The notes: generated by a model from the sequence alone, not told the origin. A stretch of 64,000 nt of DNA from Burkholderiales bacterium (GCA_035649495.1 DASRJL010000110.1:37219-101218); one strand, 5' to 3'; shown: positions 32,607 through 53,479, counted from the first letter of the stretch. Numbers and translations: made by a program.

Positions 32607-33116
32607 CTAAGCGGGCGGTATGCGATGCAGGAATAGCTCGATGGTTCGGACAAAAATAAATCCGAAGACACACAGAGCCCACGTAAGGACAATCGCGTAC
32701 GGCCCAGCGCCAGGCGGGAATGCGAGTCCGATGACGTTGAGCCAGAGAGCGGCGACCGCCAGGATCGAACCCGCGTAAATGATGATTACCCAAGGGGGAA
32801 ACTTGCCCTCCACGGCGCGGCGACGGCGGAATTGGATAAGCATAACGACGGTGAAGATCGAAGCAGCTACTGCGCTGGACAATGGCCAAACTACAGTTTC
32901 ACGAACATGAAGAAGATTCAGAAGAGTAGGAATCAAGGCCAGAGCCGTCACCAGAAATCCGCCTTCTATGTAAAGGCGCACGAGACGGAGGTGCCTATCG
33001 GACAGCTCCCCTCCCAATGCGCCTCGCAAAGTGACAACCACCGATGAAAACCCAACGAATGACAACGAAAGCGTTGCGAGGCGAAGAAGATAGTCAGATT
33101 CTCCCGGTGTCACCAT
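32607..33116 (-). CDS. Hypothetical integral membrane protein (about 5 TM)
   Basis: Multiple hydrophobic helices. No family was recognised. Start taken at MVTPGES. Confidence 0.4.
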   Translation of the reverse strand: MVTPGESDYLLRLATLSLSFVGFSSVVVTLRGALGGELSDRHLRLVRLYIEGGFLVTALALIPTLLNLLHVRETVVWPLSSAVAASIFTVVMLIQFRRRRAVEGKFPPWVIIIYAGSILAVAALWLNVIGLAFPPGAGPYAIVLTWALCVFGFIFVRTIELFLHRIPPA

Positions 33117-33347
33117 TGGGCTCCCTTTCTCGTCAGGCAACCGGCCTCCCCGTGTGCACAAGCAAGTCCCTGCGACGCTCTAGTCTGAAGAGCGAAAACT
33201 CGTATGTCCACACGAAGTGGACTGTATCCTGGCCCCAGTGAACAGGCACCTGTGGCAAACATTGATTTGAATCAAATGGGGCGATGGTAGGCCTGCTAGA
33301 ATAAGCATCGTTGCCAGCCCAAGGCCGGGCCATTACCATTGGTTTCA

Positions 33348-33707
33348 ATGAGTCTTTCAAGAGCAGCTAAGCGTTATCTGGCAGCGGTGTTTGCTGTCGT
33401 GATGTTGCTTTGCCAGAGCCTGGCTTTGGCGAATGCGTGCCTATCTGGTGCGGCAACCACTGAAGGCGCATCCGCCCCTTGTCATGATTCCGATGACTCG
33501 ACGAAGAGTTTCGGCCAAGACCGTTGCCACCAAGCCTCGCCCGCGTCGGCGGTAAGTACCGATCTGCCCGCGGTAACCGATCTTCCGCTGCTAGCAATCA
33601 ACGTTATCCCTGTCGAAGTACAGGAACATTCGGTAGCCTCTGAGCCACCGCAGCTGTGCTTCGAGCCGCCTCCCCTCAGATTCGTTCTTTGTTGTCTTCG
33701 TAATTAG
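33348..33707 (+). CDS. Hypothetical secreted Cys/His-containing protein upstream of the cus operon (CzcI-like position)
   Basis: A signal-like N-terminus is followed by C..., PCHD, RCHQ and a terminal LCCL. This placement, directly 5' of the outer-membrane factor, is typical of small metal-efflux accessory proteins. Family assignment is not verified. Confidence 0.4.
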   Translation: MSLSRAAKRYLAAVFAVVMLLCQSLALANACLSGAATTEGASAPCHDSDDSTKSFGQDRCHQASPASAVSTDLPAVTDLPLLAINVIPVEVQEHSVASEPPQLCFEPPPLRFVLCCLRN

Positions 33708-33775
33708 ATCCTCCGCTTAGGTTGTGCGGCGGCCATGGTGGTCGTCGTGTTGCCGTACGTCCATTCGGAGGGTTT

Positions 33776-35068
33776 ATGCGTCTCTTTTTCGCGTCTGCTG
33801 CGTTCCGGTCCTGTTTTGCCGCGTGCTTCCTTTTCCTGCTCAGCACAGGCGCAAGCCACGCCGCTGACGCGCTGAGCCTGACGGACGCCCAGCGCATTGC
33901 AGCTGATCGTTCGCGCCAATTGGCGGCCCAGGACCGGGCGGTCTTTGCATCCCGCGAGATGGCGGTCGCAGCTGCCCAGCTACCCGACCCGACGCTCAAA
34001 GCAGGTGTTGAGAACCTCCCGGTGAACGGCGCGGACGCCTTCAGTCTCACCAAGGACTTCATGACTATGCGCCGCATCGGCGTGATGCAGGAGTTCACCC
34101 GGTCTGAGAAGCGCCTGCTTCGCGCTGAGAAATTCGAGCGCGAAGCCGAGAGGACGACTACCGAAAAAGCGGCAACGCTGGCCACCGTACAACGCGACAC
34201 CGCTCTCGCCTGGCTGGATCGTTACTTCGCGGAAGCAATGGCAGCCGTAGTGATCGAGCAAACCAAGGCGGCCCGGCTTGAAATAGAAGCCGCCGAGACA
34301 GCGTATCGCGCCGGTCGCGGCAATCAGGCGGAGATCTTCGCGGCTCGCACCGCTGTTGTATCCCTCGAGGATCGGGCAAGCGAAACGGACCGGCGCGTGC
34401 GCACGGCGAAGAACTCGCTCGCGCGCTGGGTGGGCGAGGTCGCGGACAAGCCACTTGGCACAAAGCCGGGCATAGACGCGTTGTCGCATCTCAATGCGCA
34501 CGATCTCGATAACCAGCTCGTTAACCACCCTGAAATAGCAAGTCTTGCAAAGCAGGTCGAGATTGCGAGAACCGAAGCGAGGCTTGCCCAGGCCAACAAG
34601 CAACCGGACGTAACCGCGGAGCTTATGTATGCCCAGCGCGGTCCTGCCTATTCGAACATGGTGTCGTTCGGAATCGCGATACCGCTGCAGTGGGATCAGA
34701 AGAATCGCCAGAACCGGGAAGTGGCCGCGAAACTCGCCATGGCCGAGCAGGCGGAAGCCCAGCGCGAGGAAATGCTTCGGGCGCACGTGGCCGAAGTGCG
34801 CAACATGGTAAACGAGTGGGAAAACCTCAAGGAGCGCCGCGCCCGTTACAGCCGCGAGCTTCTGCCTCTCTCAGCCCAGCGCACTGAAGCGGTCACAACC
34901 GCCTACCGCGGCGCCCGATCTACCCTGGGTGAGGTGTTCGCGGCTCGCCGCAACGAGATCGACGTTCGCCTTCAGGCACTTCAACTCGAAGCCGAGCAGG
35001 CCAGGATCTGGGCACAGCTCAACTTCCTCATTCCGCATTCGACCGTAGCCTTGGAGAACGCGCGATGA
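33776..35068 (+). CDS. cusC: TolC-family outer-membrane efflux protein (CusC/CzcC-like)
   Basis: Signal peptide, two OEP repeats, and typical L.L..A...A...S..L.A strings. Start at MRLFF is preceded by GGAGGG. Confidence 0.8.
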   Translation: MRLFFASAAFRSCFAACFLFLLSTGASHAADALSLTDAQRIAADRSRQLAAQDRAVFASREMAVAAAQLPDPTLKAGVENLPVNGADAFSLTKDFMTMRRIGVMQEFTRSEKRLLRAEKFEREAERTTTEKAATLATVQRDTALAWLDRYFAEAMAAVVIEQTKAARLEIEAAETAYRAGRGNQAEIFAARTAVVSLEDRASETDRRVRTAKNSLARWVGEVADKPLGTKPGIDALSHLNAHDLDNQLVNHPEIASLAKQVEIARTEARLAQANKQPDVTAELMYAQRGPAYSNMVSFGIAIPLQWDQKNRQNREVAAKLAMAEQAEAQREEMLRAHVAEVRNMVNEWENLKERRARYSRELLPLSAQRTEAVTTAYRGARSTLGEVFAARRNEIDVRLQALQLEAEQARIWAQLNFLIPHSTVALENAR

Positions 35069-36627
35069 AGGCGAAAACGCTCGTCGTTGCGCTCGTGGTT
35101 GCCCTGCTGGCTGGGGGTGGAGGTTATGCCGCGTATCGCCTGGGGATGAATCGCGGGATGCACATGGCCGGACCTGCGGACTCCACGCAGACAACCGCGA
35201 GGCCCCAGAGAGCCGGCGATGTCGATCCAGGTACCGGCAAGAAAGTCCTCTACTGGCACGACCCCATGGTACCGGGCCAGCGTTTCGACAAGCCGGGCAA
35301 GTCGCCCTTCATGGACATGCAGCTTGTTCCCGTCTACGAGGGCGGAGCCAGCCAAGAGGGTGCAGTGGCCATCGATCCACGGGTGCAGCAGAACCTCGGA
35401 ATACGCACCGCCGAGGTTCGACCCGTCGCCCTCACGACTGGAATTGAAGTGGTGGGTAGCGTCGCCTACAACGAGCGTGATGTCGCCGTCGTACAGGCGC
35501 GCGTCAATGGCTATGTTGAAAGGCTACTCGTCCGTGCGCCTCTCGATCCGGTGCGCAAGGGACAGGCGCTCGCCGAACTCTATGCGCCAGATTGGGTCGC
35601 CGCCCAGGAAGAATATCTGTCGGTCAAGCGCATGCCGGGCGGCGGTCTCGAAGGCCTGCTCGATGCGGCGCGCCAGCGCATGCGGCTCGCCGGCATGACG
35701 GAAGACCAGATTCGCTTGGTCGAATCCAGCGGTAAGGTTCATGCGCGGCTGGTCGTGACAGCGCCTCTTGGCGGAGTGATTTCTGAACTGAACGCTCGCG
35801 AAGGCATGACCGTCATGTCAGGAGCGCCGCTTTTCCGGATAAACGGACTGGGCACAGTCTGGGTTAACGCAGAGGTCCCTGAAAGTCAGGCCTCCTTCGT
35901 CCGCCCCGGTGTTGCCGTGGAAGCCCGGGCAGTGGCGCTAACAGGTACGGCGCTCAAAGGCCGGGTCAACGCCCTCCTCCCCGACGTGAACCCGACCACC
36001 CGCACCCTCAAAGCGAGGATCGAGCTGCCCAACCCCGGCAATCGGCTGGTGCCAGGAATGTTTGTCACGGTGAGCTTTGCGCCGGAGTCGCGCCAGGAGG
36101 TCCTGTCGGTCCCGACCGAGGCCGTCATTCGTACCGGCACCCGCAGCGTCGTGATCGTTGCGCAGGGCGAAGGCAAATTCTCCGTTGTGGATGTTGAAGT
36201 TGGAATGGAGAGCAACGGCCAGAGTGAGGTCCGCAAAGGACTGCAGGCCGGGCAGAAGGTGGTCGTCTCCGGGCAGTTCCTTCTGGATTCGGAAGCCAAC
36301 CTGCGCGGAAGTACTGCCCGCATGAGCGAAATGCCCGGAGCCCCTGCCACACCCGCCGCCCCTGCTTCAAAAGGCGGACAAACAAACCATCGCGGCACCG
36401 GCACCGTGACCGAGATCGACGCGGCCAAAGGCCACGTCCAGCTTGATCACGGCGCGATCCCCTCCATGAGCTGGCCCGCGATGCAAATGGGTTTCGCCGT
36501 CAGCGACAAGGCCGTCCTCGCCCGGCTCAAGAAGGGCGACAAGGTCGAATTCGAAGTCCGAGGGAAGCCCAATCCGCAAGGCGACTACGTGATCGAGAAG
36601 ATCGCGCCTGCGGGGAGTAAGCCGTGA
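35065..36627 (+). CDS. cusB: RND periplasmic adaptor (CusB-like) with C-terminal CusF-like metal-binding domain
   Basis: Contains [29 protein letters not shown] (the CusB N-terminal metal site region), an HlyD-like barrel, and a C-terminal [34 protein letters not shown] CusF-type fold. The ATGA overlaps cusC. Confidence 0.85.
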
Positions 36628-39600
36628 TCGCCGGTCTTATCCGCTGGTCGATCGCCAACCGTTTCCTGGTGCTGTTGGTGAGCGTGCTCGTGGCCGCATG
36701 GGGAACGGTGTCTTTGCTCCGCACACCGCTCGACGCGCTACCCGACCTTTCGGATACGCAGGTCATCATCCGCACCCCATTCCCCGGGCAGGCGCCGCGC
36801 ATCGTCGAGGACCAGGTTACCTATCCCCTTTCGACCACGATGATGTCGGTCCCAGGCGCGAAGACCGTGCGCGGGTATTCGATGTTCGGGGACTCCTTCG
36901 TCTACATCCTGTTCGAGGACGGCACCGATCCCTATTGGGCACGATCTCGTGTTCTGGAATACCTCAACCAGGTGCAGTCGCGACTCCCCGCAGGCGCGAA
37001 ACCTGCGCTCGGACCCGACGCCACTGGCGTGGGCTGGATTTACCAATACGCGCTCGTAGACAGGACGGGGAACAACGACCTGGGCCAACTGCGTGCTTTG
37101 CAGGACTGGTTCCTGCGCTATGAGTTGAAATCCGTGCCCGACGTGGCCGAAGTCGCTTCGGTCGGCGGGATGGTACGCCAGTACCAGATCGTGCTCCTCC
37201 CGGAGCGGCTGCGGGCCTACGGCATTTCCCACGGCCGCGTGATACAGGCCGTGCAGAACGCGAACCGGGAGACCGGTGGCTCGGTGCTCGAATTGGGCGA
37301 AGCCGAATACATGGTACGCGCGAGCGGCTATCTGAAAACCCTCGAGGATTTCGCTGCAGTACCGCTGCTCACCACCGAGGCCGGCACGCCCGTCATGTTG
37401 AAGGACGTGGCGCGCATCCAGATCGGGCCGGAAATGCGCCGCGGCATCGCCGAGCTGGACGGAGAAGGTGAAGTGACGGGAGCCATCGTCATCATGCGCC
37501 ACGGCAAAAACGCGCTCACCACCATCGCAGCAGTCAAAGAGAAGATGGCCACGTTGAAGGCAAGCCTGCCAACCGGCGTCGAGATCGTCGAGACCTATGA
37601 TCGCTCCGGGCTCATCGAGCGTTCCGTGCGTCACCTCGCACAAAAGCTGCTTGAGGAATTTGCCGTCGTCGCCTTGGTCTGTCTTGTCTTCCTCCTTCAC
37701 CTGCGCAGTGCTTTCGTCGCTATCGTGACGTTGCCTCTTGGGGTGCTGGCGGCGTTTATCGTGATGCACTACCAGGGCGTCAACGCGAACATCATGTCAC
37801 TGGGCGGCATCGCAATCGCCATCGGCGCCATGGTCGACGCCGCGATCGTAATGATCGAAAATGCCCACAAGAGGCTCGAAGCATGGCATCACGCTCATCC
37901 AGAGGTGGAGCTGTCGGTCTCCGAGCGTTGGCGAGTGATCGGTGATGCAGCCGCCGAAGTGGGCCCGGCACTTTTCTTTTCGCTACTCATCATCACACTC
38001 TCGTTCGTTCCGGTATTCGCGCTGCAGGCGCAGGAAGGCCGGCTCTTCGCCCCCCTCGCTTATACCAAGACCTATGCCATGGCTGCCGCGGCGGGACTCT
38101 CCGTGACACTCGTTCCGGTGCTGATGGGGTATCTCATCCGGGGCCGTATTCCCCAAGAAGGTCGCAATCCGCTAAACCGCCTATTGATAGCCGGATACAG
38201 GCCACTTCTTGCGATCGTCCTTCGCGCGCCCTGGTTGACCATCGCCGTAGCCGTACTCCTGGCGGTTTCGTCGCTCATCCCCTTGAGCCGCCTGGGCACC
38301 GAGTTCCTCCCTCCCCTCGATGAAGGCGATCTCCTTTACATGCCTTCAGCACTGCCTGGGCTTTCCACCGGTAAGGCAGCAGAGCTCCTGCAGCAGACCG
38401 ACCGGCTCATTGCCACCGTGCCCGAAGTAAAGAGGGTCTTCGGCAAAATCGGACGCGCGGAGACCGCAACCGATCCGGCCCCGCTGGAAATGGTCGAAAC
38501 GGTGGTGCAATTGAAGCCTCGCTCGGAGTGGCGTGCCGGGATGACACCGGAGAAACTGGTGGAGGAGCTCGACCGGGTCGTGCGTCTCCCGGGTCTCTCG
38601 AACATCTGGATCCCGCCCATCCGCAATCGCATAGACATGCTCGCGACCGGCATCAAGAGCCCCTTGGGCATCAAGGTATCGGGGAATGACCTCGGCCAGA
38701 TCGAGCAGGTCGCGGGGGAAATAGAACGCGCTGTGAAGGATGTGCCGGGAGTGTCCACCGCCCTTGCGGAACGGGTGCAGGGAGGCCGGTACATCGACAT
38801 ATCGATCGACCGCAACGCCGCCAGCCGGTATGGAATGTCCATCGCGGACGTCCAGTCCGTCGTCTCATCGGCCATCGGCGGGGAAAATATCGGCGAGACC
38901 ATCGAAGGAAGGCGCCGCTTTCCGATCAATGTGCGCTATCCACGTGAATCAAGGGATTCGCTCGAGGGGCTCAAGGCCTTACCCATCGTCACCGAACGCG
39001 GCGCCCAGATTCCGTTGTCAGCAGTCGCCGCGATCAATCTCGCTGACGGGCCGCCAATGCTGCGCTCGGAGAACGCCCGCCTGTCGGGGTGGATCTATGT
39101 CGATATCCGTGGGCGCGATCTTGGTTCTGTCGTCCAGGATGCGCAGCGCGTGGTTGCGCAACGGGTGAAGCTCCCTCCGGGCGTGTCCCTGAGCTGGTCA
39201 GGCCAGTTCGAGTACCTTGAAAGGGCCCGCGCCCGGCTCGTGCTGGTCGTTCCTTTCGTCCTTCTCGTCATCTTCGTGCTGCTCTTTATGACGTTCCAGC
39301 GCATGGACGAGGCCTTGCTCATCATGCTTTCGCTCCCTTTTTCGCTGGTGGGCGGTTTCTGGTTCATCTATGCCCTCGGCCATAATTTCTCCGTAGCGGG
39401 TGCAGTGGGTTTCATCGCACTGGCCGGTGTCGCTGCGGAATTCGGCGTCGTCATGCTGCTCTACCTCAAGCAGGCGGTCGAGCGTCACGGTGTGGGACAC
39501 CTTATGGAGGCAATCGACGAAGGGGCAGTACAGCGCGTTCGACCGAAGGCAATGACCGTCGCGGTCATCATCGCGGGCCTGATCCCGATCATGTGGAGCG

Positions 39601-39743
39601 AAGGCTCCGGCGCCGAAGTCATGCAGCGCATCGCCGCCCCCATGATCGGGGGAATGCTTACAGCCCCTCTGTTGTCAATGTTCGTTATTCCAGCAGCTTA
39701 TCTGTTGTTAAACCGCAACCGCAGGAAAGGAGAAGTGCAATGA
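36624..39743 (+). CDS. cusA: CusA/CzcA-family heavy-metal efflux RND pump
   Basis: The 1039-aa ORF starts IRWSI.NRFLVLL and has 12 TM helices and HME-RND signatures. Confidence 0.95.
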
Positions 39744-40111
39744 AACGCCTCGTAACGCTGTCTGCCATTATGGCTCTGTCGATCAGCGCCGCCTTCACCG
39801 TCCAGGCCCAGATGAAGGATATGGACATGCAAAAAGGCATGGACATGAAGGGAATGGAGATGAAGAAGGACGGCGGCAAATCCGGCCAGGGCACGGTCCA
39901 CAAAGGAACCGGCGTGGTGAAAAAAGTCGACGCCGCCAAAGGCGCCGTCACGCTCGATCACGAGCCAATCAAGAGCGCGAACTGGTCGGCCATGACCATG
40001 ACCTTCAACGTCAAGGACAAGAAGATGCTGGAGAACGTGAAGAGCGGGCAGAAGGTCCAGTTTGAATTCGTTCAAGAGGGGAAGGAGAACGTAATCACCA
40101 GCATCAAATAG
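39740..40111 (+). CDS. cusF: Periplasmic copper/silver-binding protein CusF
   Basis: Signal peptide, a Met-rich linker ([17 protein letters not shown]), and the G.G.V..VD.....VTLDHEPI....W.AMTM.F core. The ATG overlaps the cusA stop. Confidence 0.8.
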
Positions 40112-40237
40112 GGATCTGCCGGGCAGGCGCATACCATTGCTGCGCCGATGCGTTCACCCCTTGCTACCGTACTCGTCGTGTTCTTCGTGGCGGTCGCCCT
40201 TAACTATCCGAGGTAGCTCGCGCGAAGTGGCTGTTGC

Positions 40238-41209
40238 CTACACAGAGCCGCGACTGGTCAGGTTCGCTAGAAGCTTCGCTAGGGAGCGACGTTCCAGCGC
40301 TGCATCGACAAGATGACTGCGTGATTTCACAGCAGCTTCGAGCGCGGTCCGCCATCGGGCGTCTCCGCTTGTGCGTAGGAGCAGGCCGGACAGCGCTACG
40401 TCGTTGCCGACTGGAAACAACGCCGGATAGCGTTTGCCGAGTAGCCCGGTATTGCCACCGATAGCAGACGCGATGACGGGTACGCCGATGGCGATGGCTT
40501 CGGAGACCACGTGAGCGCCGCCCTCCATGCGGCTCGATATCACCATGGCGTGGCTGCGCGCCAGCCAGCGCATGGCGCCGGCGTGATCGAGCTCGCCTAG
40601 CCAGCGATAACGCGGTTCTGAGCGCATCAGCGCGCGTGCCTCGCGCGCGAAGTCGGTCGACATCGCCTTACCCAGGTGCACAACGCGTATGGCCTTGTCG
40701 GCAGGCAGGCGGCGGAGCGCGAGCGCCGCCCGAAATGGATCCTTTTCTTCACGCAAATGGCCGATGACGGTAATCAGACAATAGCTGCGCGGTAGCGCCT
40801 GCCGCTGTACTGCGCGCACCGACTGATGGATCACGAAAGTCTTCCTGCGCAGGGCCGCACCGATTTCGGACAGACCTTCACGCTGCAGAACGACCATCCG
40901 ATCGGCAAGGCGCAGCGATTCACGTGCATCGTCGTCGCTGTGTATATCGCGATAAAGGTCCGTGCCAGTCAGCACCAGCACTAACGGTCGGTCCGGATAT
41001 GCGGCCTTCCAGGCCTTGATTGAAGCGTGACTGCGGCGGGCATGCAGGGCGACGAGGGCCCCGCAATCCTGCCCTGCCCACGTTTGTGTGATGTCTATCC
41101 TGTGGCCGAGGGCGCGCATATGCGCCGCCCAGCGCTCGGCTGTGTTGCGATTGCCATGGCGGGAGCCGGGCCGGGCCGGTGTTACGATGACGATACGCAA
41201 TGCTGACAA
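40238..41209 (-). CDS. GT-B glycosyltransferase (GT1/GT4-like), possibly TIGR04348/SenB (selenosugar synthase) family
   Basis: C-terminal GT1 motif (SSRMEGGAHVVSEAIA.GVPVIAS). The N-terminus RIVIVTPARPGSRHGNRNTAERWA is reminiscent of the TIGR04348 family, but this is unverified. TTG start at 41209 or 41200. Confidence 0.7.
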   Translation of the reverse strand: MSALRIVIVTPARPGSRHGNRNTAERWAAHMRALGHRIDITQTWAGQDCGALVALHARRSHASIKAWKAAYPDRPLVLVLTGTDLYRDIHSDDDARESLRLADRMVVLQREGLSEIGAALRRKTFVIHQSVRAVQRQALPRSYCLITVIGHLREEKDPFRAALALRRLPADKAIRVVHLGKAMSTDFAREARALMRSEPRYRWLGELDHAGAMRWLARSHAMVISSRMEGGAHVVSEAIAIGVPVIASAIGGNTGLLGKRYPALFPVGNDVALSGLLLRTSGDARWRTALEAAVKSRSHLVDAALERRSLAKLLANLTSRGSV

Positions 41210-41234
41210 TCCCGTCGGGAGAAAAAGGGACGGG

Positions 41235-41894
41235 CTAGGCGCGCTCCACAGGAAGGCCGGCTAGCCGCCACTCCGGCATACCCGCTTCAAGCCTGCGTGC
41301 CTTCAGGCCCTTCTTTCGCAGCATAGCCACCGCATCGTAGGACATCAGGCAGTACGGCCCACGACAGTACGCAACAACTTCCCGGCCTTTCGGCAGGTCG
41401 CGCAGGCGCTTTTCCAGCTCGTGGATCGGTATGTTGATCGCGCCCGGCAGATGGCCCGCCGCGTACTCTTCCGGCGGCCGGACGTCGAGGACCGTGACCA
41501 GGCCCTTTCGAGCCCGCTCCAGCAGTTCCTTCGCCGGCACCGGCTCGAGGTCATCCTTTTGCGCCAGGTAAAGCCTGACGATGCGCTCGACCTCCGCCAA
41601 ATACGCCTCGCCTACCTGGCCGAGAGCCGAGAGCAGCCCAACAACCTGGTCCCCCGCGAGACGGTAGAAGACATACAAGCCTTCCTTACGACCGACAATC
41701 AGGCCTGCCTGCCGCAGTTTTTGCAGGTGCTGAGAGGTATTGGCAACCGTCGTTCCGGTCAGGTTTGCCAACTGCTCCACGTTTCGTTCCGCCTGGGCGA
41801 GCAGTTCCAGAAACTCAATCCGGGTCGAGCTGGAGAGCGCCGTTCCGATGCGGGCCAGATTGGTGAATATGTCCCGCTTCGCGTTGGTTGACAT
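41235..41894 (-). CDS. ArsR/SmtB-family transcriptional regulator fused to a rhodanese domain
   Basis: The N-terminal wHTH (RIEFLELLAQAERNVEQLANLTGTTVANTSQHLQKLRQAGLV) is followed by a rhodanese domain (VLDVRPPEEYAAGHLPGAINIP...AYCRGPYC). Confidence 0.85.
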   Translation of the reverse strand: MSTNAKRDIFTNLARIGTALSSSTRIEFLELLAQAERNVEQLANLTGTTVANTSQHLQKLRQAGLIVGRKEGLYVFYRLAGDQVVGLLSALGQVGEAYLAEVERIVRLYLAQKDDLEPVPAKELLERARKGLVTVLDVRPPEEYAAGHLPGAINIPIHELEKRLRDLPKGREVVAYCRGPYCLMSYDAVAMLRKKGLKARRLEAGMPEWRLAGLPVERA

Positions 41895-41917
41895 CCAATG
41901 AACCTCTGTTCTACTAT

Positions 41918-41933
41918 TCAAGTGATTAATTGA
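41918..41933. promoter_or_regulatory. Imperfect palindrome TCAAGTGATTAATTGA in the divergent promoter region (candidate ArsR-type operator)
   Basis: 12 of 16 positions are self-complementary. It lies between the ArsR-rhodanese gene and the divergent desaturase gene. Confidence 0.2.
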
Positions 41934-41985
41934 TTATATGATCGTTTGACTATTGTGTCCATTCTAACCGTGAGCAAAGCCGACC

Positions 41986-42816
41986 ATGGCCGAGTTTGAG
42001 GGGCCGATTCGGCTTGGGGCTTTCCTGGCTGTTTTTGTAGCGGTAGCCCTGTGGGAAGTTCTTGCTCCGTGCCGGAGACAGGAGTTCCGGCGAGCGGCGC
42101 GCTGGCCGCACAACATCGGTCTTCTCCTGGTGAACGTGGTTCTACTGCGGGTGGTAGCGCCGGGTGCAGCGGTTGCTGTGGCCATGACGGCTGAGGCCGG
42201 CGGATGGGGACTGCTGAACGCCCTACCTTTCCCAGCCTGGCTCGCGGTTCCGCTTGCAGTGATGCTGCTCGACCTCGCCATCTACTTCCAGCACGTCATG
42301 TTTCATGCCGTGCCGACGCTTTGGCGGCTGCACCGCGTGCACCATGCCGACCTCGAATTCGATCTCACCACGGGTACCCGCTTTCACCCGTTTGAGATTC
42401 TGATTTCGACCGCAATCAAGTGCGCAGCGGTCGCGGCCATCGGCGCCTCCCCCATCTCAGTCCTGATTTTTGAGGTGCTGCTTAACTCGACCGCGATGTT
42501 CAACCACGCAAACGCTTCCTTGCCGGCGATTATCGATCGATGGGTGCGATGGGTCCTTGTCACCCCCGACATGCATCGTGTTCATCATTCCGTTCGCTAC
42601 GAGGAGTCCTCTAGCAATTTCGGGTTTAACCTGCCGTGGTGGGATCGGCTCTTCGGGACATACCGGCCCCAGCCGAAGCTGGGCCATGCCGCCATGAACA
42701 TCGGCGTCGATGCGTTCCGCTTCCCGGAGGATTCGCGTCTCGACCGACTCCTCGTGCAACCCTTTCGCGATACGCCAGGCCAGTACCCCATCAACCGGCG
42801 AGAGGCCGCGGGGTGA
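41986..42816 (+). CDS. Fatty acid hydroxylase / sterol desaturase superfamily membrane protein
   Basis: Histidine boxes HVMFH, HRVHH and HRVHHS, with several TM helices. Confidence 0.8.
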   Translation: MAEFEGPIRLGAFLAVFVAVALWEVLAPCRRQEFRRAARWPHNIGLLLVNVVLLRVVAPGAAVAVAMTAEAGGWGLLNALPFPAWLAVPLAVMLLDLAIYFQHVMFHAVPTLWRLHRVHHADLEFDLTTGTRFHPFEILISTAIKCAAVAAIGASPISVLIFEVLLNSTAMFNHANASLPAIIDRWVRWVLVTPDMHRVHHSVRYEESSSNFGFNLPWWDRLFGTYRPQPKLGHAAMNIGVDAFRFPEDSRLDRLLVQPFRDTPGQYPINRREAAG

Positions 42817-43120
42817 GCGTCTGCCCGGCAGTGCTTCGGCCGCGGTTATCGATGTGCGGGGGCCGGATGAATTTAACGGGCCTTTGGGACATATACCCGA
42901 TGCCCTTAACGTGCCGCTGGGCGAGCTTGAGGCCCGGCTAGCAGCCCTCACTTCTGACAAACGACAGATGGTTGTAGTCTGCAAAACGGACAAACGATCT
43001 GTAAAGGCTGCAGAGAGTCTTCGAGCCCATGGAATTAAGCATGTGATGGTATTGCGCGGCGGCATGGAGGAATGGAGCTGTCAGGCCGCGCCATCGCAGG
43101 CAATCATTACGCCGATCTAG
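42710..43120 (+). CDS. Single-domain rhodanese (sulfurtransferase), start uncertain
   Basis: Contains VIDVRGPDEF..GHIPDALNVP and the active-site loop CKTDKRS (C-X4-R-S). The only canonical start (42710) overlaps the desaturase gene by 107 nt. Confidence 0.55.
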   Translation: MRSASRRIRVSTDSSCNPFAIRQASTPSTGERPRGERLPGSASAAVIDVRGPDEFNGPLGHIPDALNVPLGELEARLAALTSDKRQMVVVCKTDKRSVKAAESLRAHGIKHVMVLRGGMEEWSCQAAPSQAIITPI

Positions 43121-43185
43121 CGCTCGCTTACCTTTCAGGCAGCCAGCGCGCCGCATGTGGAACACCCTAACCGGGAGACCAATCC

Positions 43186-43485
43186 ATGCATCCGACGCAC
43201 CCACCGTCGCAGGTTCCTCCCGCGCCTGCGAACAAGTCCATGACTTACCTGCTGGGTGGTCTATCCATTTTCACAATGGTCATGACGATCCCACAAGTCC
43301 TGACGGTTTGGATCGGTCATCAAACGGCAGGAGTTTCGCTTATCTCCTGGAGTGCATACTTGATTTCCGCCCTGGTATGGTTCTGGTACGGAATACAAAA
43401 ACGAGATCGAAATATCTACTTGCCGTGCATAGGCTGGATCGTACTTGATGCGGCAGTGGTGTCCGGTGTACTCATTCTAGGATGA
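43186..43485 (+). CDS. SemiSWEET / PQ-loop family small transporter (3 TM)
   Basis: Three helices with the PQ motif (TIPQVLTVW) and W..YG, like bacterial SemiSWEETs. An alternative start at 43240 (MTYLLGG) gives 81 aa. Confidence 0.6.
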   Translation: MHPTHPPSQVPPAPANKSMTYLLGGLSIFTMVMTIPQVLTVWIGHQTAGVSLISWSAYLISALVWFWYGIQKRDRNIYLPCIGWIVLDAAVVSGVLILG

Positions 43486-43539
43486 TTCTTTCTAGCGCAC
43501 GCATGATTCCGGGTTTTAATTCGCTTTGGGGCTAATCAC

Positions 43540-44682
43540 GTGCGACGCGGGTCCACGTTTCAACGCCGCGGAATTGTCGAAGGATTCTTCGGACCTCCCT
43601 GGAGCATGCCGCACCGCAAGGCTCTTTTCCGGTTCGGCGCAAAGAGGGGGATGAACACCTATCTCTACGCCCCCAAGGACGACCCTTATCACCGCGCGCG
43701 CTGGAGGGATCCCTATCCGAAGGGCGAATGGAAAGTGCTGCAGGATCTCATCAAGGCCGCGCAAGAGCAGCATATCGATTTCGTTTACGCCTTCCACCCA
43801 GGAAAGGGGCTGCGGTTCTCCGCTCTAGAGCCCGCGCAGCTTTTGCTCGAGAAGGCCGCGCGCTTCTACGATGCGGGCGTGCGAATCTTCGCGGTTCTGT
43901 TCGATGACATCCCCTCGCGCCTGAGTCACGCGGCGGACCGAAAACACTTTGGTGGTAGCCTGGCCAGGGCCGAAGGACTGTGGCTGGAGAAGATCCTCGA
44001 ACGGCAGCCGGCGTCCTGGACGGAAGTGGAATGGTGGATCTGTCCCTCCCGCTACACGGAACACCCCCGGCTCGAGCGCATGTTCGGCGTCTTCGAGCCG
44101 CGCTTCTGGCAGACGCTCGCCAGACACCTGCCCGCCCCTGTCGCCTGTCTCTGGACCGGGCCTGCCATTGTGCCCCGGACGGTCTCCCTGGCCCATGCGC
44201 GCAAGGTGGCACGTCAGCTCAAGCACCCCCTGATTCTCTGGGACAACTACCCCGTCAACGATTTGTCGATGAGCGATGAGATGCATCTCGCTCCCCTTGC
44301 CGGCCGCGACTCGCGCCTGCCGGCGGCGGTTTACGGCTATCTGAACAATCCCCTGTTGCAGGAGAGTTTGAGCCTGGTTCCGCTCGCCACCTGCTTCGAC
44401 TACGCCGCGAACCCTGCGGCATACGATCCCGAGAGGAGCTGGAGGGAAGTCGTGCGGGAGCTTTTCGGCGCGAGCGCTATTCCTCACTGGCGCGCTATTC
44501 TGGATTTCTGCGAGAGGATGAATCGCTCAAAGGGCGGGAAACGATCCACCGCACTCGCGCCCGGCAGGCTACGCGCACTTCGAGAAGCGGACCGTTACCT
44601 CTTGAGAAATCAAGGACGCCGTTGGTTTGAAGAGTTTCGTCCGTGGCTCGCGCGACTCGAAGCCGAACTGGCGCGGCGGTAA
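43540..44682 (+). CDS. GH84-family beta-N-acetylglucosaminidase (O-GlcNAcase-like)
   Basis: Contains RGIVEGFFGPPWS, MNTYLYAPKDDPYHR.RWRDPYP and FAVLFDDI (the catalytic DD pair). There is no signal peptide. Confidence 0.8.
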   Translation: MRRGSTFQRRGIVEGFFGPPWSMPHRKALFRFGAKRGMNTYLYAPKDDPYHRARWRDPYPKGEWKVLQDLIKAAQEQHIDFVYAFHPGKGLRFSALEPAQLLLEKAARFYDAGVRIFAVLFDDIPSRLSHAADRKHFGGSLARAEGLWLEKILERQPASWTEVEWWICPSRYTEHPRLERMFGVFEPRFWQTLARHLPAPVACLWTGPAIVPRTVSLAHARKVARQLKHPLILWDNYPVNDLSMSDEMHLAPLAGRDSRLPAAVYGYLNNPLLQESLSLVPLATCFDYAANPAAYDPERSWREVVRELFGASAIPHWRAILDFCERMNRSKGGKRSTALAPGRLRALREADRYLLRNQGRRWFEEFRPWLARLEAELARR

Positions 44683-44828: not shown

Positions 44829-45869
44829 TCAAGCTCTAGTCCCGATCGCCCCGATCGCGGAGAAGAGATTCTCGACCGTCTGCCGGGGAATGCCCTTCGT
44901 GATGAACACGAGGCGCGTTCCGTGGTCCGCGCCGGGCCATGCCGCAAGCTCGATGGGAGGATGGAAGAGATGCTGCACCCCCTGCACCACCATCGGGCCG
45001 CTCTTGCCTTCGACGTTGACGAGGCCCTTCACCCGCAGGAGGTCCGGACCGCGGAGCGCCGTCAGGACCTCTATCGTCTGCGTGAACGCCTGCCACGCGA
45101 GCGGCTTGTCGAAGCGAAGCGTGAAAGTCTTGATTGCCTCGTCGTGGTGGTGATGGTGGCCGTGCTCGTCGCCGGCATGGTCCTCTTTCTCCCCGTCGCC
45201 CAGCCAGCGCTCGACCTCTTCCAGGCGTGACTTCGTATTCGTCAGGCCCACGTCAACCAGGAACGCCGGATCCACTTCCCCGTTCAAGGCCCGGGTGAAC
45301 AGCGCGCGCGGGTTGATCTCGCGCAGGCGGCGTTCCAGAGCCTCTACCTGCCCGGCCGGGGCGAGGTCCGTCTTGGTCACCACGATGCGGTCCGCCAGCG
45401 CGACCTGTTTCACCGGCTCGGAAAACGAATCGAGCTGCCCCGGAGAATTGAACGCATCGACCAGCGTGACCACGCAGTCGAGCCGGAACTGGTCGAGCAG
45501 CAGCGAATCGGTCATCAAGGTCTGCATGACCGGCGCCGGGTCGGCGATGCCGGTGGTCTCCACGATGACGCGCTCGAAGTCGATGATCTCGCCGTTGCGG
45601 CGCTTGATGAACAGCTCCCGCAGCGTTTCCTGGAGATCGGTGCGCAGCGTGCAGCACAGGCAGCCGCTGTTCAGCAGCATCATCTGCTCGGACGAGGTTT
45701 CGACGAGGTCGTTGTCGACGCCGATCTCGCCCAGCTCGTTGACGATCACCGCCACGCGGTTCATCTCCGGGCGCTTCACGAGCCGGTTGATGAGCGTCGT
45801 CTTGCCGCTGCCCAGAAAGCCGGTAATCACGGATACCGGAAGCCGTCCCGCCAGTGCGTCCTGCGCCAT
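44829..45869 (-). CDS. CobW/G3E-family metallochaperone GTPase (ZigA/YeiR-like) with His-rich stretch
   Basis: Contains GFLGSGKTTL, the CxCC motif (GCLCCT), the His-rich stretch EHGHHHHHDE and a CobW C-terminal domain. Start at MAQDALAG. Confidence 0.9.
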   Translation of the reverse strand: MAQDALAGRLPVSVITGFLGSGKTTLINRLVKRPEMNRVAVIVNELGEIGVDNDLVETSSEQMMLLNSGCLCCTLRTDLQETLRELFIKRRNGEIIDFERVIVETTGIADPAPVMQTLMTDSLLLDQFRLDCVVTLVDAFNSPGQLDSFSEPVKQVALADRIVVTKTDLAPAGQVEALERRLREINPRALFTRALNGEVDPAFLVDVGLTNTKSRLEEVERWLGDGEKEDHAGDEHGHHHHHDEAIKTFTLRFDKPLAWQAFTQTIEVLTALRGPDLLRVKGLVNVEGKSGPMVVQGVQHLFHPPIELAAWPGADHGTRLVFITKGIPRQTVENLFSAIGAIGTRA

Positions 45870-45941
45870 CAGCGTTCCCGCTGTTTTCCAATGGGGCCTG
45901 CAGTATACTCCAGTGCAATTTCCTGGGAGAACCCTCCGGGC

Positions 45942-46622
45942 ATGAAGGTTCTCGTCGTAGACGATCACGCACTGATCCGCGAGGCGTTGCGCGGCGTCCT
46001 GAAGGAGCTGAAGGACGACGCGACCATCGTCGAGGCGTCCAGCGGGCGCGAGGCCTTGAGTCTCCTCGGCGACCATCCCGACTTCAGCCTCATCCTCCTC
46101 GACCTGAATCTGCCCGACCGGAACGGCTTTGCCGTTCTCGCCGAGCTGCGCGAGCGCTATCCCGCGGTCGCGACCGTGGTGCTCTCGGCTTTCAGCGACC
46201 GCGAAAACATCGCGCGGGCCCTCGACCTGGGAGCGCTCGGTTTCATCCCGAAGTCCGGCTCGCGGTCAGTGATGCTGGGCGCCCTGCGGCTGGTTCTTTC
46301 CGGCGGCATCTACATACCTCCCGACATCCTCGCGCAGCGGGAAACCTCGCCCGCGGAGCCGAAGGCCGGCCGGCCCGCCCGGGACGGACGGCCTCTTTCG
46401 CCGCGCGATGCGGGCCTGACCGAGCGCCAGGTGGAGGTCCTCGCCCTCATGATGCAAGGCAAGAGCAACAAGGCGATCTGCCGGATTCTCGATCTCGCCG
46501 AGCCGACGGTTAAAAATCACGTCACGGCGATATTGAAATCCCTGAAAGTGACCAACCGGACCGAGGCCGTCATTGCAGTAGGTGACTTGGGCTGGGATCT
46601 GCGGTCGACGGCAGGTCGCTAG
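45942..46622 (+). CDS. NarL/LuxR-family response regulator
   Basis: REC domain (VLVVDDH, LDLNLPD, receiver K) plus a LuxR HTH (LTERQ.EVL.L...G.SNK.I...L.....TVK.H). Confidence 0.9.
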   Translation: MKVLVVDDHALIREALRGVLKELKDDATIVEASSGREALSLLGDHPDFSLILLDLNLPDRNGFAVLAELRERYPAVATVVLSAFSDRENIARALDLGALGFIPKSGSRSVMLGALRLVLSGGIYIPPDILAQRETSPAEPKAGRPARDGRPLSPRDAGLTERQVEVLALMMQGKSNKAICRILDLAEPTVKNHVTAILKSLKVTNRTEAVIAVGDLGWDLRSTAGR

Positions 46623-49189: not shown

Positions 49190-50218
49190 TCAAGCCTTGA
49201 GCTCCTTCCTCAGGGCATGGAGAAAGCGCCAGTCTGTGCCCTGGGCGATGATCTTCTGCGGGGTCGACTTGATCATTCCCGCCTCCTGCAGCCGCAAAGC
49301 GTAGAAGCGAATGGTGTCCTCGGGGTCGTACTCGCGCCATTTGCCGTAGGGCAGCTCCCTCATGACCTGGAGCGCGTACTCGTAGCGGCCCGCATAGCCC
49401 TTGTCGACGAGTGCGCGTGCCGCCCCCTGTGGATCGGCCGCGCATGCGTCGGCCGACTTGAGAATCGCGCGCAGCGCGCGCCTGGTCGCTACCGGGTTCC
49501 TGCGCACGAATTCCTTCCGCGCCGTAAGCAGACAGCAGAAATACTGCGACCAGGGACGGTCGGTCGCGCTGTTGACGATCACGTGGCCGACCTTGCGCGC
49601 CCTCAGTTCCTGAGGCTGGGGCGGGAACCCGAGAAACACGTCAGCCTTCCCTTCCAGGAACAGGCGCATCGACCCTTCGTTGGTGTACGGACCCAGATGC
49701 CCTTCCGGCGAGATCCACTTGATGTCCCGGTGCGGGTCGAGTCCGACATTCGCCGCGATGCTCGCCAGGAAGACGTGCTCCGCGCCGTTCAAGGACGCAA
49801 CCGCGGCGACTTTGCCTTTCAGGTCACGGATGCGCTGGATCCGCTCCGTGGCGACCACCTCGAAACAGCCGACGTGGACCCCCGCGAGAAACACCACCGG
49901 GTCGCCCGCCTCGACGCGGATGATGTTGGGGCCGACGAAATTCAGGCTCATGTCCGCGTCCCCCGCTGCCAGGCGCACCGAAACCGCGCCGGTCGGCATG
50001 TCCACGTAGCTCACGTCCGTGAATCCTTCGGCCCGCAGCAGATCCTCCGCGATGTACTGGGGCGCCCAGCAGATGCTGCCTGTCTTCAACAGCCGCAGAC
50101 GCGTCGTCTCCGGCGGCGGCTCGGCGCCGGCGGCTCCGCCTCCCATTCCGAGGAAGGCCGTTCCGGCGAGAGCAGAACTCACGAATTCCCTGCGGCTCCA
50201 TCCCCGTTCTCGCCTCAT
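49190..50218 (-). CDS. Tat-signal NMT1/THI5-like (NitT/TauT-type) periplasmic binding protein, paralog 1
   Basis: Contains SRREFV (twin-Arg), AEPPPETTRLRLL, VHVGCFE, DRPWSQYFCC and a C-terminal DWRF....LRKELKA. Confidence 0.8.
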   Translation of the reverse strand: MRRERGWSRREFVSSALAGTAFLGMGGGAAGAEPPPETTRLRLLKTGSICWAPQYIAEDLLRAEGFTDVSYVDMPTGAVSVRLAAGDADMSLNFVGPNIIRVEAGDPVVFLAGVHVGCFEVVATERIQRIRDLKGKVAAVASLNGAEHVFLASIAANVGLDPHRDIKWISPEGHLGPYTNEGSMRLFLEGKADVFLGFPPQPQELRARKVGHVIVNSATDRPWSQYFCCLLTARKEFVRRNPVATRRALRAILKSADACAADPQGAARALVDKGYAGRYEYALQVMRELPYGKWREYDPEDTIRFYALRLQEAGMIKSTPQKIIAQGTDWRFLHALRKELKA

Positions 50219-50282
50219 ATGCGTCTCCTCCGAAACGACTGCGTAGCAGCTTTCGAACAGCCTGCTTCCCCGGTGGGCGGCA

Positions 50283-51302
50283 TCATGCCTTCATCTCTTT
50301 CTTGAGTTCTCGCCAAAAGCGCCAGTCCGTTCCCCGCGCGATGATCTTTGCCGGGCTCGACTTGATCATGCCAGCCTCGTTGAGGCGCAACGCATAAAAG
50401 CGCACGGTATCCTCGGCGTCGAAGTCCCGCCAGCGGCCGTAGGGCACGCTCTTCATGGCCTGGAGCGCGTAGTCGTAGTTCTTCGTGAATCCGCGCTCGA
50501 CGAGAGTCCGGGCAGCGCGCTCGGGCTGGTCGGCGCAAATCTGGTCCGCCTTGAGGATGGCCCGGATCGCGCGTTTGGTGGCAACGGGGTGCTTCTGGAC
50601 GAACTGCCGGTTCCCGGCCACCAGACAACAGAAGTACTGCGACCAGGGCCGATCCACGGCGCTGTTGACTACCACGTGCCCGATCTTCTTCGCGCGGAGC
50701 TCTTGAGGGTCAGGCGGAAACCCCATATAGCCGTCGATCTTCCCTTCGGCAAGCAGCCGCTTCGCCTCTGCCGGCGGCCGTTCGATGAAGTCGACATCCT
50801 TCCCCGCGCGGAGCCCCACGTATGCCAGCATGGCGGTGAGGAATACGTGGGGACTCGATCCGAACGCCGGTACTGCGACGGTCTTCCCGCGGAGGTCCCG
50901 GATGGCGCGGACGCGATCGGTGCCGAAGAGTTCGAAGCATCCCGCGTGCACTCCGGCGAGGAGCACGAGCGGAGTGCCGAGGTCGATCTGGACCACCGAC
51001 GGGGCGATGAACCCCTGACTGATATCGAGTTCTCCTGAGCCCAGGCGCCCGTACGCGGCGATGCCCTCCTCCGGAAACTCCAGGTACTGGACGTCCGTGA
51101 ATCCTTCGGCACGAAGCAATCCCTCTGCCACGTACTGAGGCGCCAGGCACAGGCTGGGAAACTTGAGGAGCCGCAGCCGGGTCGTCTCCGGCGGCGGTTC
51201 AGCCGCCGCGCTTGCCGGCCGCAACCCCAGGACCGCGCCCGTTCCTGCAAGAGCGGCGGACCCAAGAAACGCCCTGCGGTCCGATCGAATTCCCGTGCTC
51301 AC
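50283..51302 (-). CDS. Tat-signal NMT1/THI5-like periplasmic binding protein, paralog 2
   Basis: Contains DRRAFL, AEPPPETTRLRLL, VHAGCFE, DRPWSQYFCC and DWRFWRELKKEMKA. Confidence 0.8.
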   Translation of the reverse strand: MSTGIRSDRRAFLGSAALAGTGAVLGLRPASAAAEPPPETTRLRLLKFPSLCLAPQYVAEGLLRAEGFTDVQYLEFPEEGIAAYGRLGSGELDISQGFIAPSVVQIDLGTPLVLLAGVHAGCFELFGTDRVRAIRDLRGKTVAVPAFGSSPHVFLTAMLAYVGLRAGKDVDFIERPPAEAKRLLAEGKIDGYMGFPPDPQELRAKKIGHVVVNSAVDRPWSQYFCCLVAGNRQFVQKHPVATKRAIRAILKADQICADQPERAARTLVERGFTKNYDYALQAMKSVPYGRWRDFDAEDTVRFYALRLNEAGMIKSSPAKIIARGTDWRFWRELKKEMKA

Positions 51303-51338
51303 GTATCTCCTTCCCGGCCATTCCGTGCGCCGACGGCG

Positions 51339-52352: not shown

Positions 52353-52413
52353 CGATACTCATCACAAGCCATCGGCGTTCATGCACGCGGAGTCGCCACG
52401 CGCGCACGGCGCA

Positions 52414-53439: not shown

Positions 53440-53479
53440 CGATCGCTCCCTGATGCTGTGCCCGGAAAACGCGGCCCGG

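Follow-up and report, generated by a model that had tools for sequence, protein, structure and literature searches.

Do the six genes at positions 40238-44682 of a 64-kb stretch of Burkholderiales bacterium DNA (GCA_035649495.1 DASRJL010000110.1:37219-101218; the window, below, means all 64,000 nucleotides of it) constitute one system for handling a chalcogen-linked sugar, or are they unrelated pieces that have come to lie side by side? An original prediction, made from the sequence alone, recognized here a SenB-like glycosyltransferase, an ArsR-rhodanese regulator, a membrane di-iron hydroxylase, a stand-alone rhodanese, a SemiSWEET transporter and a GH84 enzyme, and read them jointly as a set for synthesis, transport and turnover of a thio- or seleno-conjugate of N-acetylglucosamine (GlcNAc). 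We found six of six open reading frames (ORFs) at the predicted coordinates, and an ORF check and profile searches upheld each domain assignment. The observation is thus confirmed and its interpretation partly supported: it is a fair reading for SenB, SemiSWEET and GH84, and it does not carry over to the ArsR-rhodanese, the hydroxylase or the rhodanese. What we propose, with about an even chance of being right, is that the block consists of two interleaved modules in a copper/silver-resistance (cus) island of this uncultured soil bacterium, and that the products of SenB are processed by GH84 and SemiSWEET under a chalcogen-sensing repressor. The first module would comprise SenB, SemiSWEET and GH84, and the second the ArsR-rhodanese, the FA-hydroxylase and the rhodanese.

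The glycosyltransferase scores 373.5 bits on the TIGR04348 (SenB) profile, against a curated equivalog cutoff of 300 and 93 bits for the next best model, and the match is end to end, with protein residues 6-315 aligned to positions 1-309 of the 310 in the model. The SenB structures in the PDB (8jjq, 8fbx and 8k5u) are matched with E of 1e-59. In the Variovorax paradoxus SenB, K158 is catalytic, N20, H58, R61, T83, T85 and R155 form the selenophosphate pocket, N20, T23 and E231 contact the sugar and E239 the ribose (PMC10891094). Alignment to 8jjq shows that the window protein retains all of these positions, as N20, T23, H56, R59, T81, T83, R153, K156, E229 (in the motif EGGAHV) and E237, and the catalytic and binding residues are invariant in 26 relatives. 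It is 72-82% identical to the SenBs of canonical senC-senA|senB clusters (L002, L085-L088), and a neighbor-joining tree places it with the SenBs of loci L094 (94% identical), L001 (92%) and L091 (88%) in one clade nested among the canonical, senA/senC-linked SenBs. The ratio of nonsynonymous to synonymous substitution rates (dN/dS) is 0.14-0.16 within this clade and 0.147, the same, against a canonical SenB; SenB has remained under purifying selection since it left senA and senC. The resemblance noted in the original prediction is therefore borne out by the profile search that it called for, and by these comparisons we identify the protein as a genuine SenB, a family that makes the selenosugar SeGlcNAc from UDP-GlcNAc and selenophosphate, with UDP-GlcNAc preferred (PMC10891094).

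With the senA-senB-senC (sen) cluster of Variovorax paradoxus and others (Kayrouz et al. 2022) the window shares this SenB ortholog, complete in its catalytic, UDP-sugar and selenophosphate residues. It differs in that senB is joined to an ArsR-rhodanese operon, a SemiSWEET and a GH84, and in the missing partners: tblastn and Pfam scans of the other genes detected no selD/senC, no senA (NHISS) and no egtD in the 64-kb window, with no tblastn match to SenA at E<1e-3 over its whole length, in agreement, as regards selD/senC and senA, with what had been noted at first reading. Such separation has precedents, in that both partners lay within 5 kb for 827 of the 2,353 TIGR04348 genes of the original survey (10.1101/2022.04.13.486033) and ovoselenol genes can be chromosomally separated (PMC11030361). 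Among 80 related genome loci, senA adjoins senB in about 62 and is missing from about 18. In the ovoselenol (ovs) cluster, with ovsA, ovsM and senB/senC, the SenB selenosugar serves another acceptor enzyme and the sugar exits as 2-acetamidoglucal (PMC11030361); the window has no OvsA/OvsM-like genes, and its accessory genes are GH84, SemiSWEET, the rhodaneses and the hydroxylase. On plasmids, tblastn yielded four distant SenB matches only. Several of the senA-less SenB loci adjoin a SpoU methylase gene, and this RNA methylase is a conserved neighbor of the SenA-less SenBs of the Sulfuricella, Thiobacillus and Sulfurisoma types (L020, L039, L040, L044, L058, L062 and L080). Two further oddities are a 194-aa FGE-sulfatase relic beside SenB in L058 and, in L053 (1202-2311), a SenB whose next gene encodes a protein of 369 aa that begins with a rhodanese domain and resembles SelU/MnmH in size and architecture.

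The GH84 protein matches the Pfam NAGidase domain (PF07555) with 275.7 bits (cutoff 25), and its PDB matches are 5diy (E 3e-62), NagJ, BT_4395 and the human O-GlcNAcase (OGA). The motif FDDIP, with the catalytic pair D122 and D123, and the motifs YAPKDD, CPSRY (CPxxY), WDNYPVND and NNP, whose K, Y, N and D, and N respectively bind GlcNAc, are invariant in an alignment that spans three phyla. It is a single domain without an N-terminal extension, as expected of the cytoplasmic enzyme that had been predicted, and on NCBIfam NF041654, a model of secreted multidomain beta-N-acetylglucosaminidases, it scores 191 bits against a cutoff of 1000, with the catalytic core alone matching. We prefer GTG 43540 as the start codon because the public (JGI) call at 43606 removes the conserved RGIVEGFFGPPW motif. 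Its dN/dS is 0.17. With the O-GlcNAcase homologs of Thermobaculum terrenum (5diy), Clostridium perfringens (NagJ) and Bacteroides (BT_4395) it shares the fold family, the DD pair, the GlcNAc-binding K/Y/N/D residues and, by extension, substrate-assisted catalysis, and 5diy is likewise a short cytoplasmic form. It differs from the known GH84s in belonging to a separate clade, in having SenB as its genomic partner and no carbohydrate-binding or secretion domains, and in its proposed substrate, which would be a GlcNAc glycal or a GlcNAc linked to selenium in place of an O-GlcNAc protein or a glycan. Conservation is high: across the top 120 database clusters, identity is at least 58%, and they span Betaproteobacteria, Binatia and 'Deltaproteobacteria'; a tblastn search of 72,556 plasmids gave 88 plasmid-borne GH84s, none more than 37% identical to the window protein, and a scan of viral contigs for GH84 gave no match. 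Judged from these alignments, the window GH84 is a member of a distinct, SenB-linked clade of ~380-aa proteins remote from other GH84s. The literature that we searched held nothing relevant linking GH84, glucosaminidases or glycoside hydrolases to selenosugars or selenoneine.

The small membrane protein between the rhodanese and GH84 has seven best PDB matches, all of them SemiSWEETs or SWEETs (E 1e-6 to 2e-3; the best being 9kon/4qnd, and 4qnc and 4x5m also among them), and its PQ motif aligns with that of the solved SemiSWEETs. The prediction of a three-transmembrane SemiSWEET stands as regards these matches, the motif and the size, and falls short as regards the curated profiles, to which we return below. 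Like the SemiSWEETs of Vibrio sp. (4qnd), Leptospira biflexa (4qnc) and E. coli (4x5m), it has ~80 residues, three transmembrane helices and the PQ motif in the first of them; it differs in being divergent and genomically tied to SenB, and it may carry GlcNAc, SeGlcNAc or 2-acetamidoglucal in place of glucose or sucrose. We also considered 79-80-aa PnuC-like ORFs near the GH84 of L099 as SemiSWEET orthologs and rejected them, as they gave no alignment.

What ties these three genes together is their recurrence in other genomes. GH84s 60-64% identical to that of the window lie immediately upstream of SenB in L081/L096-98, L103-104, L082 and L105, and one that is 83% identical is present in L094. 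Three architectures are seen: a Binatia-type order with a short FGE-sulfatase-like gene divergent from GH84 -> SenB (L081, L096-98, L103-104); a Syntrophobacterales-type order Amidohydro_2 -> GH84 -> SenA -> SenB (L082, L105), whose SenA, with 511 bits, clears the model's cutoff of 420; and, in L094, GH84<-SemiSWEET|SenB, without the regulator, the hydroxylase and the rhodanese. The SenBs of the first two types form a clade far from the window SenB in the neighbor-joining tree, and with GH84-linked SenBs in two distant clades the association must have arisen or been transferred more than once. When four GH84 relatives were looked up blind to their context, a small sample, three had a SenB-type glycosyltransferase adjacent. 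SemiSWEET orthologs 56-64% identical adjoin SenB in both L094 and L091; in L091-93, where SenB is 88% identical, the order is SemiSWEET<-MFS_MOT1 transporter|small ORF->SenB. Within the SenB clade of the window, then, SenB is repeatedly joined to SemiSWEET and GH84 in differing arrangements, and the conserved linkage that the original prediction had made its touchstone is found: GH84-SenB in three architectures and distant phyla, SemiSWEET-SenB in near relatives, and ArsR-rhodanese-SenB in L001.

These loci contain other genes of some interest. The Binatia-type FGE-sulfatase-only proteins have 286-293 residues (L081 7597-8457; L096-L098 9038-9898; L104 7051-7932), lack a DinB domain and score 101 bits on the SenA model (cutoff 420); they may be a different kind of selenosugar-using enzyme. 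The MFS_MOT1 permease of L091 (384-1556), which resembles molybdate transporters, may transport an oxyanion, perhaps selenate or selenite. Between the ArsR-rhodanese and SenB of L001 (8539-9918) is an FAD-dependent pyridine-nucleotide-disulfide oxidoreductase of the PRK06370 type (748 bits), a relative of MerA, RclA and lipoamide dehydrogenase, and a 46% identical homolog occurs inside a Blastocatellia selD-senA-senB locus (L074, about 5870); this oxidoreductase is a candidate selenium- or metal-reducing accessory.

The limits of the block itself are given by L001, a farmland-soil contig. It is 88-92% identical to the window at the nucleotide level, and this identity is confined to 40259-41228, 41242-42155 and 44252-44679; outside 40259-44679 the flanks of the two are unrelated. 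Since the homology starts at 40259 and ends at 44679, the block is a discrete portable unit of ~4.45 kb. The six-gene grouping is not a chance arrangement, and the coordinates first assigned to it match real homology breakpoints. As compared with the window, a 2.1-kb deletion has removed from L001 most of the hydroxylase, the rhodanese, SemiSWEET and most of GH84, leaving stubs that can still be recognized.

The regulator, a winged-helix protein of the ArsR/SmtB type, belongs to the second proposed module. It scores 71.2 bits on the ArsR model NF033788 (cutoff 55), matches Pfam HTH_5/HTH_20 and carries a rhodanese domain (PF00581, 68.6 bits), and it falls well short of the BigR equivalog NF040642 (32.6 bits, cutoff 155). 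Its sole cysteines, C187 and C192, are both in the rhodanese loop CRGPYC, with none in residues 1-186; as the ArsR domain is cysteine-free, any thiol-based sensing must go through the rhodanese domain. A literature search for ArsR-rhodanese fusions found no characterized member. The dN/dS of the regulator is 0.056, and a 95% identical ortholog is found upstream of SenB in L001. In the window senB is the second gene of the regulator's operon, on the same strand after a gap of 25 nt.

The 91-bp intergenic region 41895-41985 has a GC content of 0.385, and its surroundings hold the divergent promoter that had been predicted, as two back-to-back sigma-70-like sites (against 1.1 expected in the promoter scan, with 10-11 of 12 positions matching). 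The predicted plus-strand promoter is TTGACA(41888)-18-TACTAT(41912-41917) and that of the minus strand TGGACA(41961)-17-TATAAT(41938-41933). Both -10 boxes are overlapped by a candidate operator, ATTCAAGTGATTAATTGATT (41916-41935), a 20-bp inverted repeat of the form ATTCAA-N8-TTGAAT, and from this position one repressor could shut both operons. The repeat occupies an equivalent place ahead of the regulator gene in the window, in L001 and on plasmids of Roseibium and Thioclava (both perfect) and Hydrogenophaga (one mismatch). Its half-sites resemble the SqrR/YgaV box, ATTC-N8-GAAT (PMC9774250); the spacing differs, as the outer ATTC and GAAT are here 12 nt apart. With SqrR/BigR/YgaV and the ygaV-ygaP and bigR-blh systems the window shares an ArsR-family regulator and an association with rhodanese, along with MBL-fold (persulfide-dioxygenase-like) genes in relatives, and the half-sites over its promoters are similar, of an ATTC...GAAT type; it differs in the fusion of the regulator to rhodanese, in the spacing, in the lack of a canonical dithiol in the ArsR domain and in having a selenosugar synthase in the predicted regulon.

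The remaining members of the block point to a different history. The hydroxylase, of the fatty acid hydroxylase/sterol desaturase superfamily (FA_hydroxylase PF04116, 99.2 bits against a gathering score of 31), has the histidine boxes HVMFH, HRVHH and HRVHH (HX3H, HX2HH, HX2HH); its identification as OlsE was ruled out by a score of 82 bits on that model, the cutoff of which is 475. Homologs 56-61% identical occur on plasmids and also inside mer/cop islands. ArsR-rhodanese orthologs 47-56% identical are carried by plasmids of Hydrogenophaga, Roseibium, Thioclava and Bradyrhizobium, and on the alphaproteobacterial ones of Roseibium (54%/61%) and Thioclava (about 53%/56%) the hydroxylase divergently adjoins the regulator amid copper, iron and insertion-sequence (IS) elements. 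An N-terminal relic of the hydroxylase persists in L001. Other ArsR-rhodanese orthologs head units of a metallo-beta-lactamase (MBL) hydrolase, a major facilitator superfamily (MFS) protein and a rhodanese, which resemble persulfide-detoxification operons. The ArsR-rhodanese and FA-hydroxylase are a separate and older module than SenB/SemiSWEET/GH84.

The stand-alone rhodanese (PF00581, 63.4 bits) does have the intact C-X4-R loop that had been reported for it, as C-KTDK-R. Among PDB entries it comes closest to BpPRF (5ve3, E 5e-16), a fusion of persulfide dioxygenase with rhodanese, and the match is to the rhodanese domain of that fusion. At no other locus examined was it found beside SenB, GH84 or the hydroxylase. 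Its long ORF shares ~100 nt with the hydroxylase gene, read in a different frame, and translation from the JGI start (GTG 42854) would leave out the first beta-strand. We considered a hydroxylase-rhodanese fusion with a frameshift at 42710-42860 and found no homolog to support it. In these respects the view of the six genes as one coherent set fails: the ArsR-rhodanese/FA-hydroxylase pair occurs without SenB on plasmids associated with metal and sulfur stress, and the rhodanese is conserved with nothing. A locus in which a related regulator and SenB do come close is plasmid pBPS33-1 of Hydrogenophaga sp. BPS33 (L106, NZ_CP044550.1 49964-66899), where senA|senB lie within a heavy-metal island (mer/cop/chr/ars). 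At a distance of 4 kb from senA|senB is a unit of ArsR-rhodanese (47% identical to that of the window), MBL hydrolase, MFS and rhodanese, and a GDCCVxC (seleno)protein is encoded nearby. It is a second case of SenB among metal-resistance genes.

How might these components work together? Selenium-specific small-molecule metabolism in bacteria was discovered in 2022, and to our knowledge three types of enzyme are known in it: SelD/SenC, SenB and the NHISS enzymes SenA and OvsA. We know of no enzyme that handles either of two compounds of this pathway, the reduced selenoether and 2-acetamidoglucal. In the literature that we searched, the fate of the sugar (one 2-acetamidoglucal per turnover, and a dead-end reduced Se-glycoside) and the regulation of the pathway are treated as spontaneous chemistry or left unaddressed. 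Both compounds are documented: the hercynyl-SeGlcNAc selenoether is a shunt product formed when the selenoxide is reduced instead of eliminating (10.1101/2022.04.13.486033), and selenoxide elimination frees 2-acetamidoglucal stoichiometrically (PMC11030361).

In the mechanism that we propose, selenophosphate would be supplied by a SelD/SenC encoded outside the window, because none is encoded within it, and any SenA-like acceptor enzyme would likewise be encoded elsewhere. GH84, as a cytoplasmic, GlcNAc-specific enzyme with substrate-assisted catalysis, would work on the GlcNAc moiety of metabolites derived from SenB once selenium has been transferred. We cast it as an enzyme that removes or recovers GlcNAc because it is predicted to be cytoplasmic and GlcNAc-competent and is co-inherited with SenB, and the preference of SenB for UDP-GlcNAc matches a GlcNAc-specific hydrolase. 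We favor for it a role in cleaving beta-Se-GlcNAc glycosides, e.g. the hercynyl-SeGlcNAc selenoether, to a selenol and GlcNAc; as a close second, it could hydrate 2-acetamidoglucal, the by-product of selenoxide elimination, to GlcNAc. GH20 hexosaminidases reportedly hydrate 2-acetamidoglucal, a finding attributed to Lai and Withers in 1994. N-acetyl glycals are described as binding tightly to hexosaminidases (Santana 2016, as quoted in PMC6017319), and OGA as cleaving thioglycosides with good leaving groups without general acid catalysis (Macauley 2005, as quoted in PMC10636738). SemiSWEET may move GlcNAc, 2-acetamidoglucal or SeGlcNAc across the inner membrane. The ArsR-rhodanese repressor is predicted to bind ATTCAA-N8-TTGAAT over both -10 boxes and would be released upon modification of the CX4C cysteines of its rhodanese loop by reactive sulfur or selenium species, the putative inducers, turning on both operons and senB with them.

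The GH84 clade that rides with SenB across distant phyla supplies a specific candidate for the enzyme of the sugar step. The 'orphan' bacterial O-GlcNAcase homologs would have in it their first proposed physiological role. Placement of senB under an ArsR-rhodanese repressor in a metal-resistance island ties selenosugar synthesis to reactive-sulfur and metal stress, and the regulator with its operator offers a handle on when bacteria make selenosugar compounds.

Several facts weigh against this mechanism. Selenium flux through SenB in this host is unproven, given the lack of selD, senA and egtD in the 64 kb, and the ArsR-rhodanese, the hydroxylase and the rhodanese are mostly found without any selenium gene. 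Direct hydrolysis of SeGlcNAc would form a futile cycle with SenB. Cys-S-GlcNAc resists human OGA (PMC10636738), which means that whether a Se-glycoside is cleaved hinges on its leaving group. The SemiSWEET falls short of the curated cutoffs of NF037969 (SemiSWEET_3; 36.1 against 100), NF037968 (30.7 against 80) and Pfam MtN3_slv (18.4 against 23.7). The fourth of the GH84 relatives that were looked up blind, which is 80% identical, has a transposase and a ParE gene as neighbors and, within 8 kb, no SenB. Of the 80 loci whose SenB is nearest to that of the window, two carry GH84, which makes it an optional accessory, and L001, having deleted most of the divergent operon with SenB intact, indicates that GH84 and SemiSWEET are dispensable for SenB there.

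The main alternative, unlikely in our estimate, is that nothing couples the genes functionally: an island for metal and sulfur stress gathered unrelated pieces, the orphan senB serves in trans a sen cluster elsewhere, the ArsR-rhodanese, hydroxylase and rhodanese are a neighboring unit that senses reactive sulfur species, and GH84 and SemiSWEET take part in ordinary cytoplasmic recycling of GlcNAc (from cell wall or glycoconjugates) and in sugar passage. The Roseibium and Thioclava plasmids with the ArsR-rhodanese|FA-hydroxylase pair and no SenB, the combinations of ArsR-rhodanese with MBL hydrolase, MFS and rhodanese elsewhere, and the position of the block in a low-GC island with cusCBAF all speak for it, as do the frequency of SenA-less SenBs and the loss of the GH84 operon from L001 with retention of SenB. 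A mosaic divergence from L094, with 93% nucleotide identity for SenB and 73% for SemiSWEET/GH84, also fits piecewise assembly. However, neither chance nor housekeeping explains why SenBs of two distant clades, in three unrelated gene orders, have GH84 as a neighbor; L094 and L091 both pair SemiSWEET with SenB, each with other genes in between; and senB is within the regulator's operon in both the window and L001. In our view this account holds in part for the regulator, hydroxylase and rhodanese, and the repeated occurrence of SenB beside GH84 and beside SemiSWEET is difficult to square with it.

Somewhat less probable still is that SeGlcNAc, self-made or acquired from neighboring cells through SemiSWEET, serves to transport or store selenium and is hydrolyzed directly by GH84 to GlcNAc and selenide, with the rhodanese(s) passing perselenide on to SelD. 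Hydrogen selenide is a good leaving group, rhodanese perselenide is reported to act as a selenium donor for selenophosphate synthetase in vitro, the block has two rhodanese domains, and it is SenB, not SenA, that is common to all GH84 contexts, the window clade without a nearby SenA included. Yet SenB and a SeGlcNAc hydrolase under one operator would run a futile cycle that consumes ATP and UDP-GlcNAc, and at other loci neither GH84 nor SenB is accompanied by the rhodanese. In L082 and L105 a single operon has GH84 after an amidohydrolase gene and ahead of a bona fide SenA, an arrangement that better fits a pathway step.

We find improbable, as a whole, a more adventurous scheme in which the block is a self-contained, chalcogen-sensing selenosugar system without selenoneine, in which SeGlcNAc, a selenol of low molecular weight produced when needed, would be the final compound. 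Under this scheme the regulator would be the first selenium- or perselenide-responsive ArsR-rhodanese repressor; SemiSWEET would export SeGlcNAc to the periplasm, where it would bind or reduce soft metals (Cu/Ag of the adjacent cus genes, Hg on the related plasmids); GH84 would be the first dedicated Se-glycosidase, recovering or degrading SeGlcNAc; and the di-iron hydroxylase could fill the oxidative role of SenA.

It is very improbable that the block is a decaying remnant, with senB stranded after the loss of senA/senC and the accessory genes heading for deletion. The 2.1-kb deletion of L001, with its FA-hydroxylase and GH84 stubs, would suit such decay, as would the odd and possibly truncated N-terminus of the rhodanese and the FGE-sulfatase relic of L058; against it, four independent metagenomic contigs carry an intact SenB of the window clade, and we reject a pseudogene reading of the window copy, as all six ORFs are intact with their catalytic motifs and the dN/dS values given above for SenB and GH84 (0.14-0.17) and for the regulator are low.

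Least probable of all is the sulfur version left open by the 'thio-' of the original prediction, in which SenB would use thiophosphate or rhodanese persulfide to make a 1-thio-GlcNAc for GH84 and SemiSWEET: two rhodanese domains, a SqrR/BigR-like operator and the lack of selD in the window favor it, and we reject it since every selenophosphate-pocket residue is unchanged, the protein nests among selD-linked SenBs, to which it is up to 82% identical, and we know of no biological source of thiophosphate. SenC, for its part, makes no thiophosphate from sulfide (10.1101/2022.04.13.486033).

Returning to the mechanism of two modules under one chalcogen-sensing repressor, its components are positioned as follows.

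Location and basis of assignment of the features of the six-gene block (window coordinates)
Feature	Coordinates	Strand	Basis
SenB (TIGR04348 selenosugar synthase), 323 aa	40238..41209	-	TIGR04348 profile and PDB alignment
ArsR-rhodanese fusion regulator	41235..41921; likely start ATG 41894, giving 219 aa	-	NF033788 and Pfam
Divergent control region with predicted promoters and candidate operator	41888..41961	.	Promoter scan and conserved repeat
FA_hydroxylase-superfamily membrane di-iron protein, 276 aa	41986..42816	+	Pfam
Single-domain rhodanese, start codon uncertain	ORF 42710..43120; conserved domain from ~42839	+	Pfam
SemiSWEET-type three-transmembrane PQ-loop sugar uniporter, 81 aa	ATG 43240..43485; ORF open up to 43186	+	PDB matches
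Single-domain cytoplasmic GH84, 380 aa	43540..44682	+	Pfam NAGidase

The block is AT-richer than its flanks, as had been claimed (GC 0.608 against 0.655-0.686), and the low-GC zone proves wider than claimed. It extends over 31703-44682, with GC of 0.55-0.62 and a lowered GC at third codon positions, and contains a DUF4336 gene, two ORFs without a family match, cusC-cusB-cusA-cusF (33722-40111) and the six-gene block; its CusB has a CusF-like domain at the C-terminus (36370-36573). The zone is probably a horizontally acquired metal-resistance island. No integrase, transposase or flanking direct or inverted repeats were found marking the island or the block, and no tRNA genes or Rfam families were found in the 64-kb window. 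The remainder of the window is chromosomal housekeeping DNA (RNase E, UvrB), the UvrB being 89% identical to proteins from Burkholderiales metagenome-assembled genomes, and a 65.6-kb contig of JGI metagenome 3300041967 has the same gene order as the window with a 99% identical GH84.

Just beyond the homology block and convergent to GH84 is a gene for a CobW/G3E-family metallochaperone GTPase with a His-rich stretch (44829-46076), followed by genes for a LuxR-type response regulator and a hybrid histidine kinase. A run of three to four NMT1/THI5-type solute-binding-protein genes lies 5-9 kb from the block (49190-53655); an NMT1-type ABC transporter also precedes the Syntrophobacterales-type GH84-senA-senB operon (L082 3561-6216), which may be coincidence. 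A second lower-GC stretch (0.59), at 14500-21240, is unrelated and codes for a PEP-CTERM protein with a leishmanolysin-like segment, a trypsin-like protease and a WXXGXW-repeat protein.

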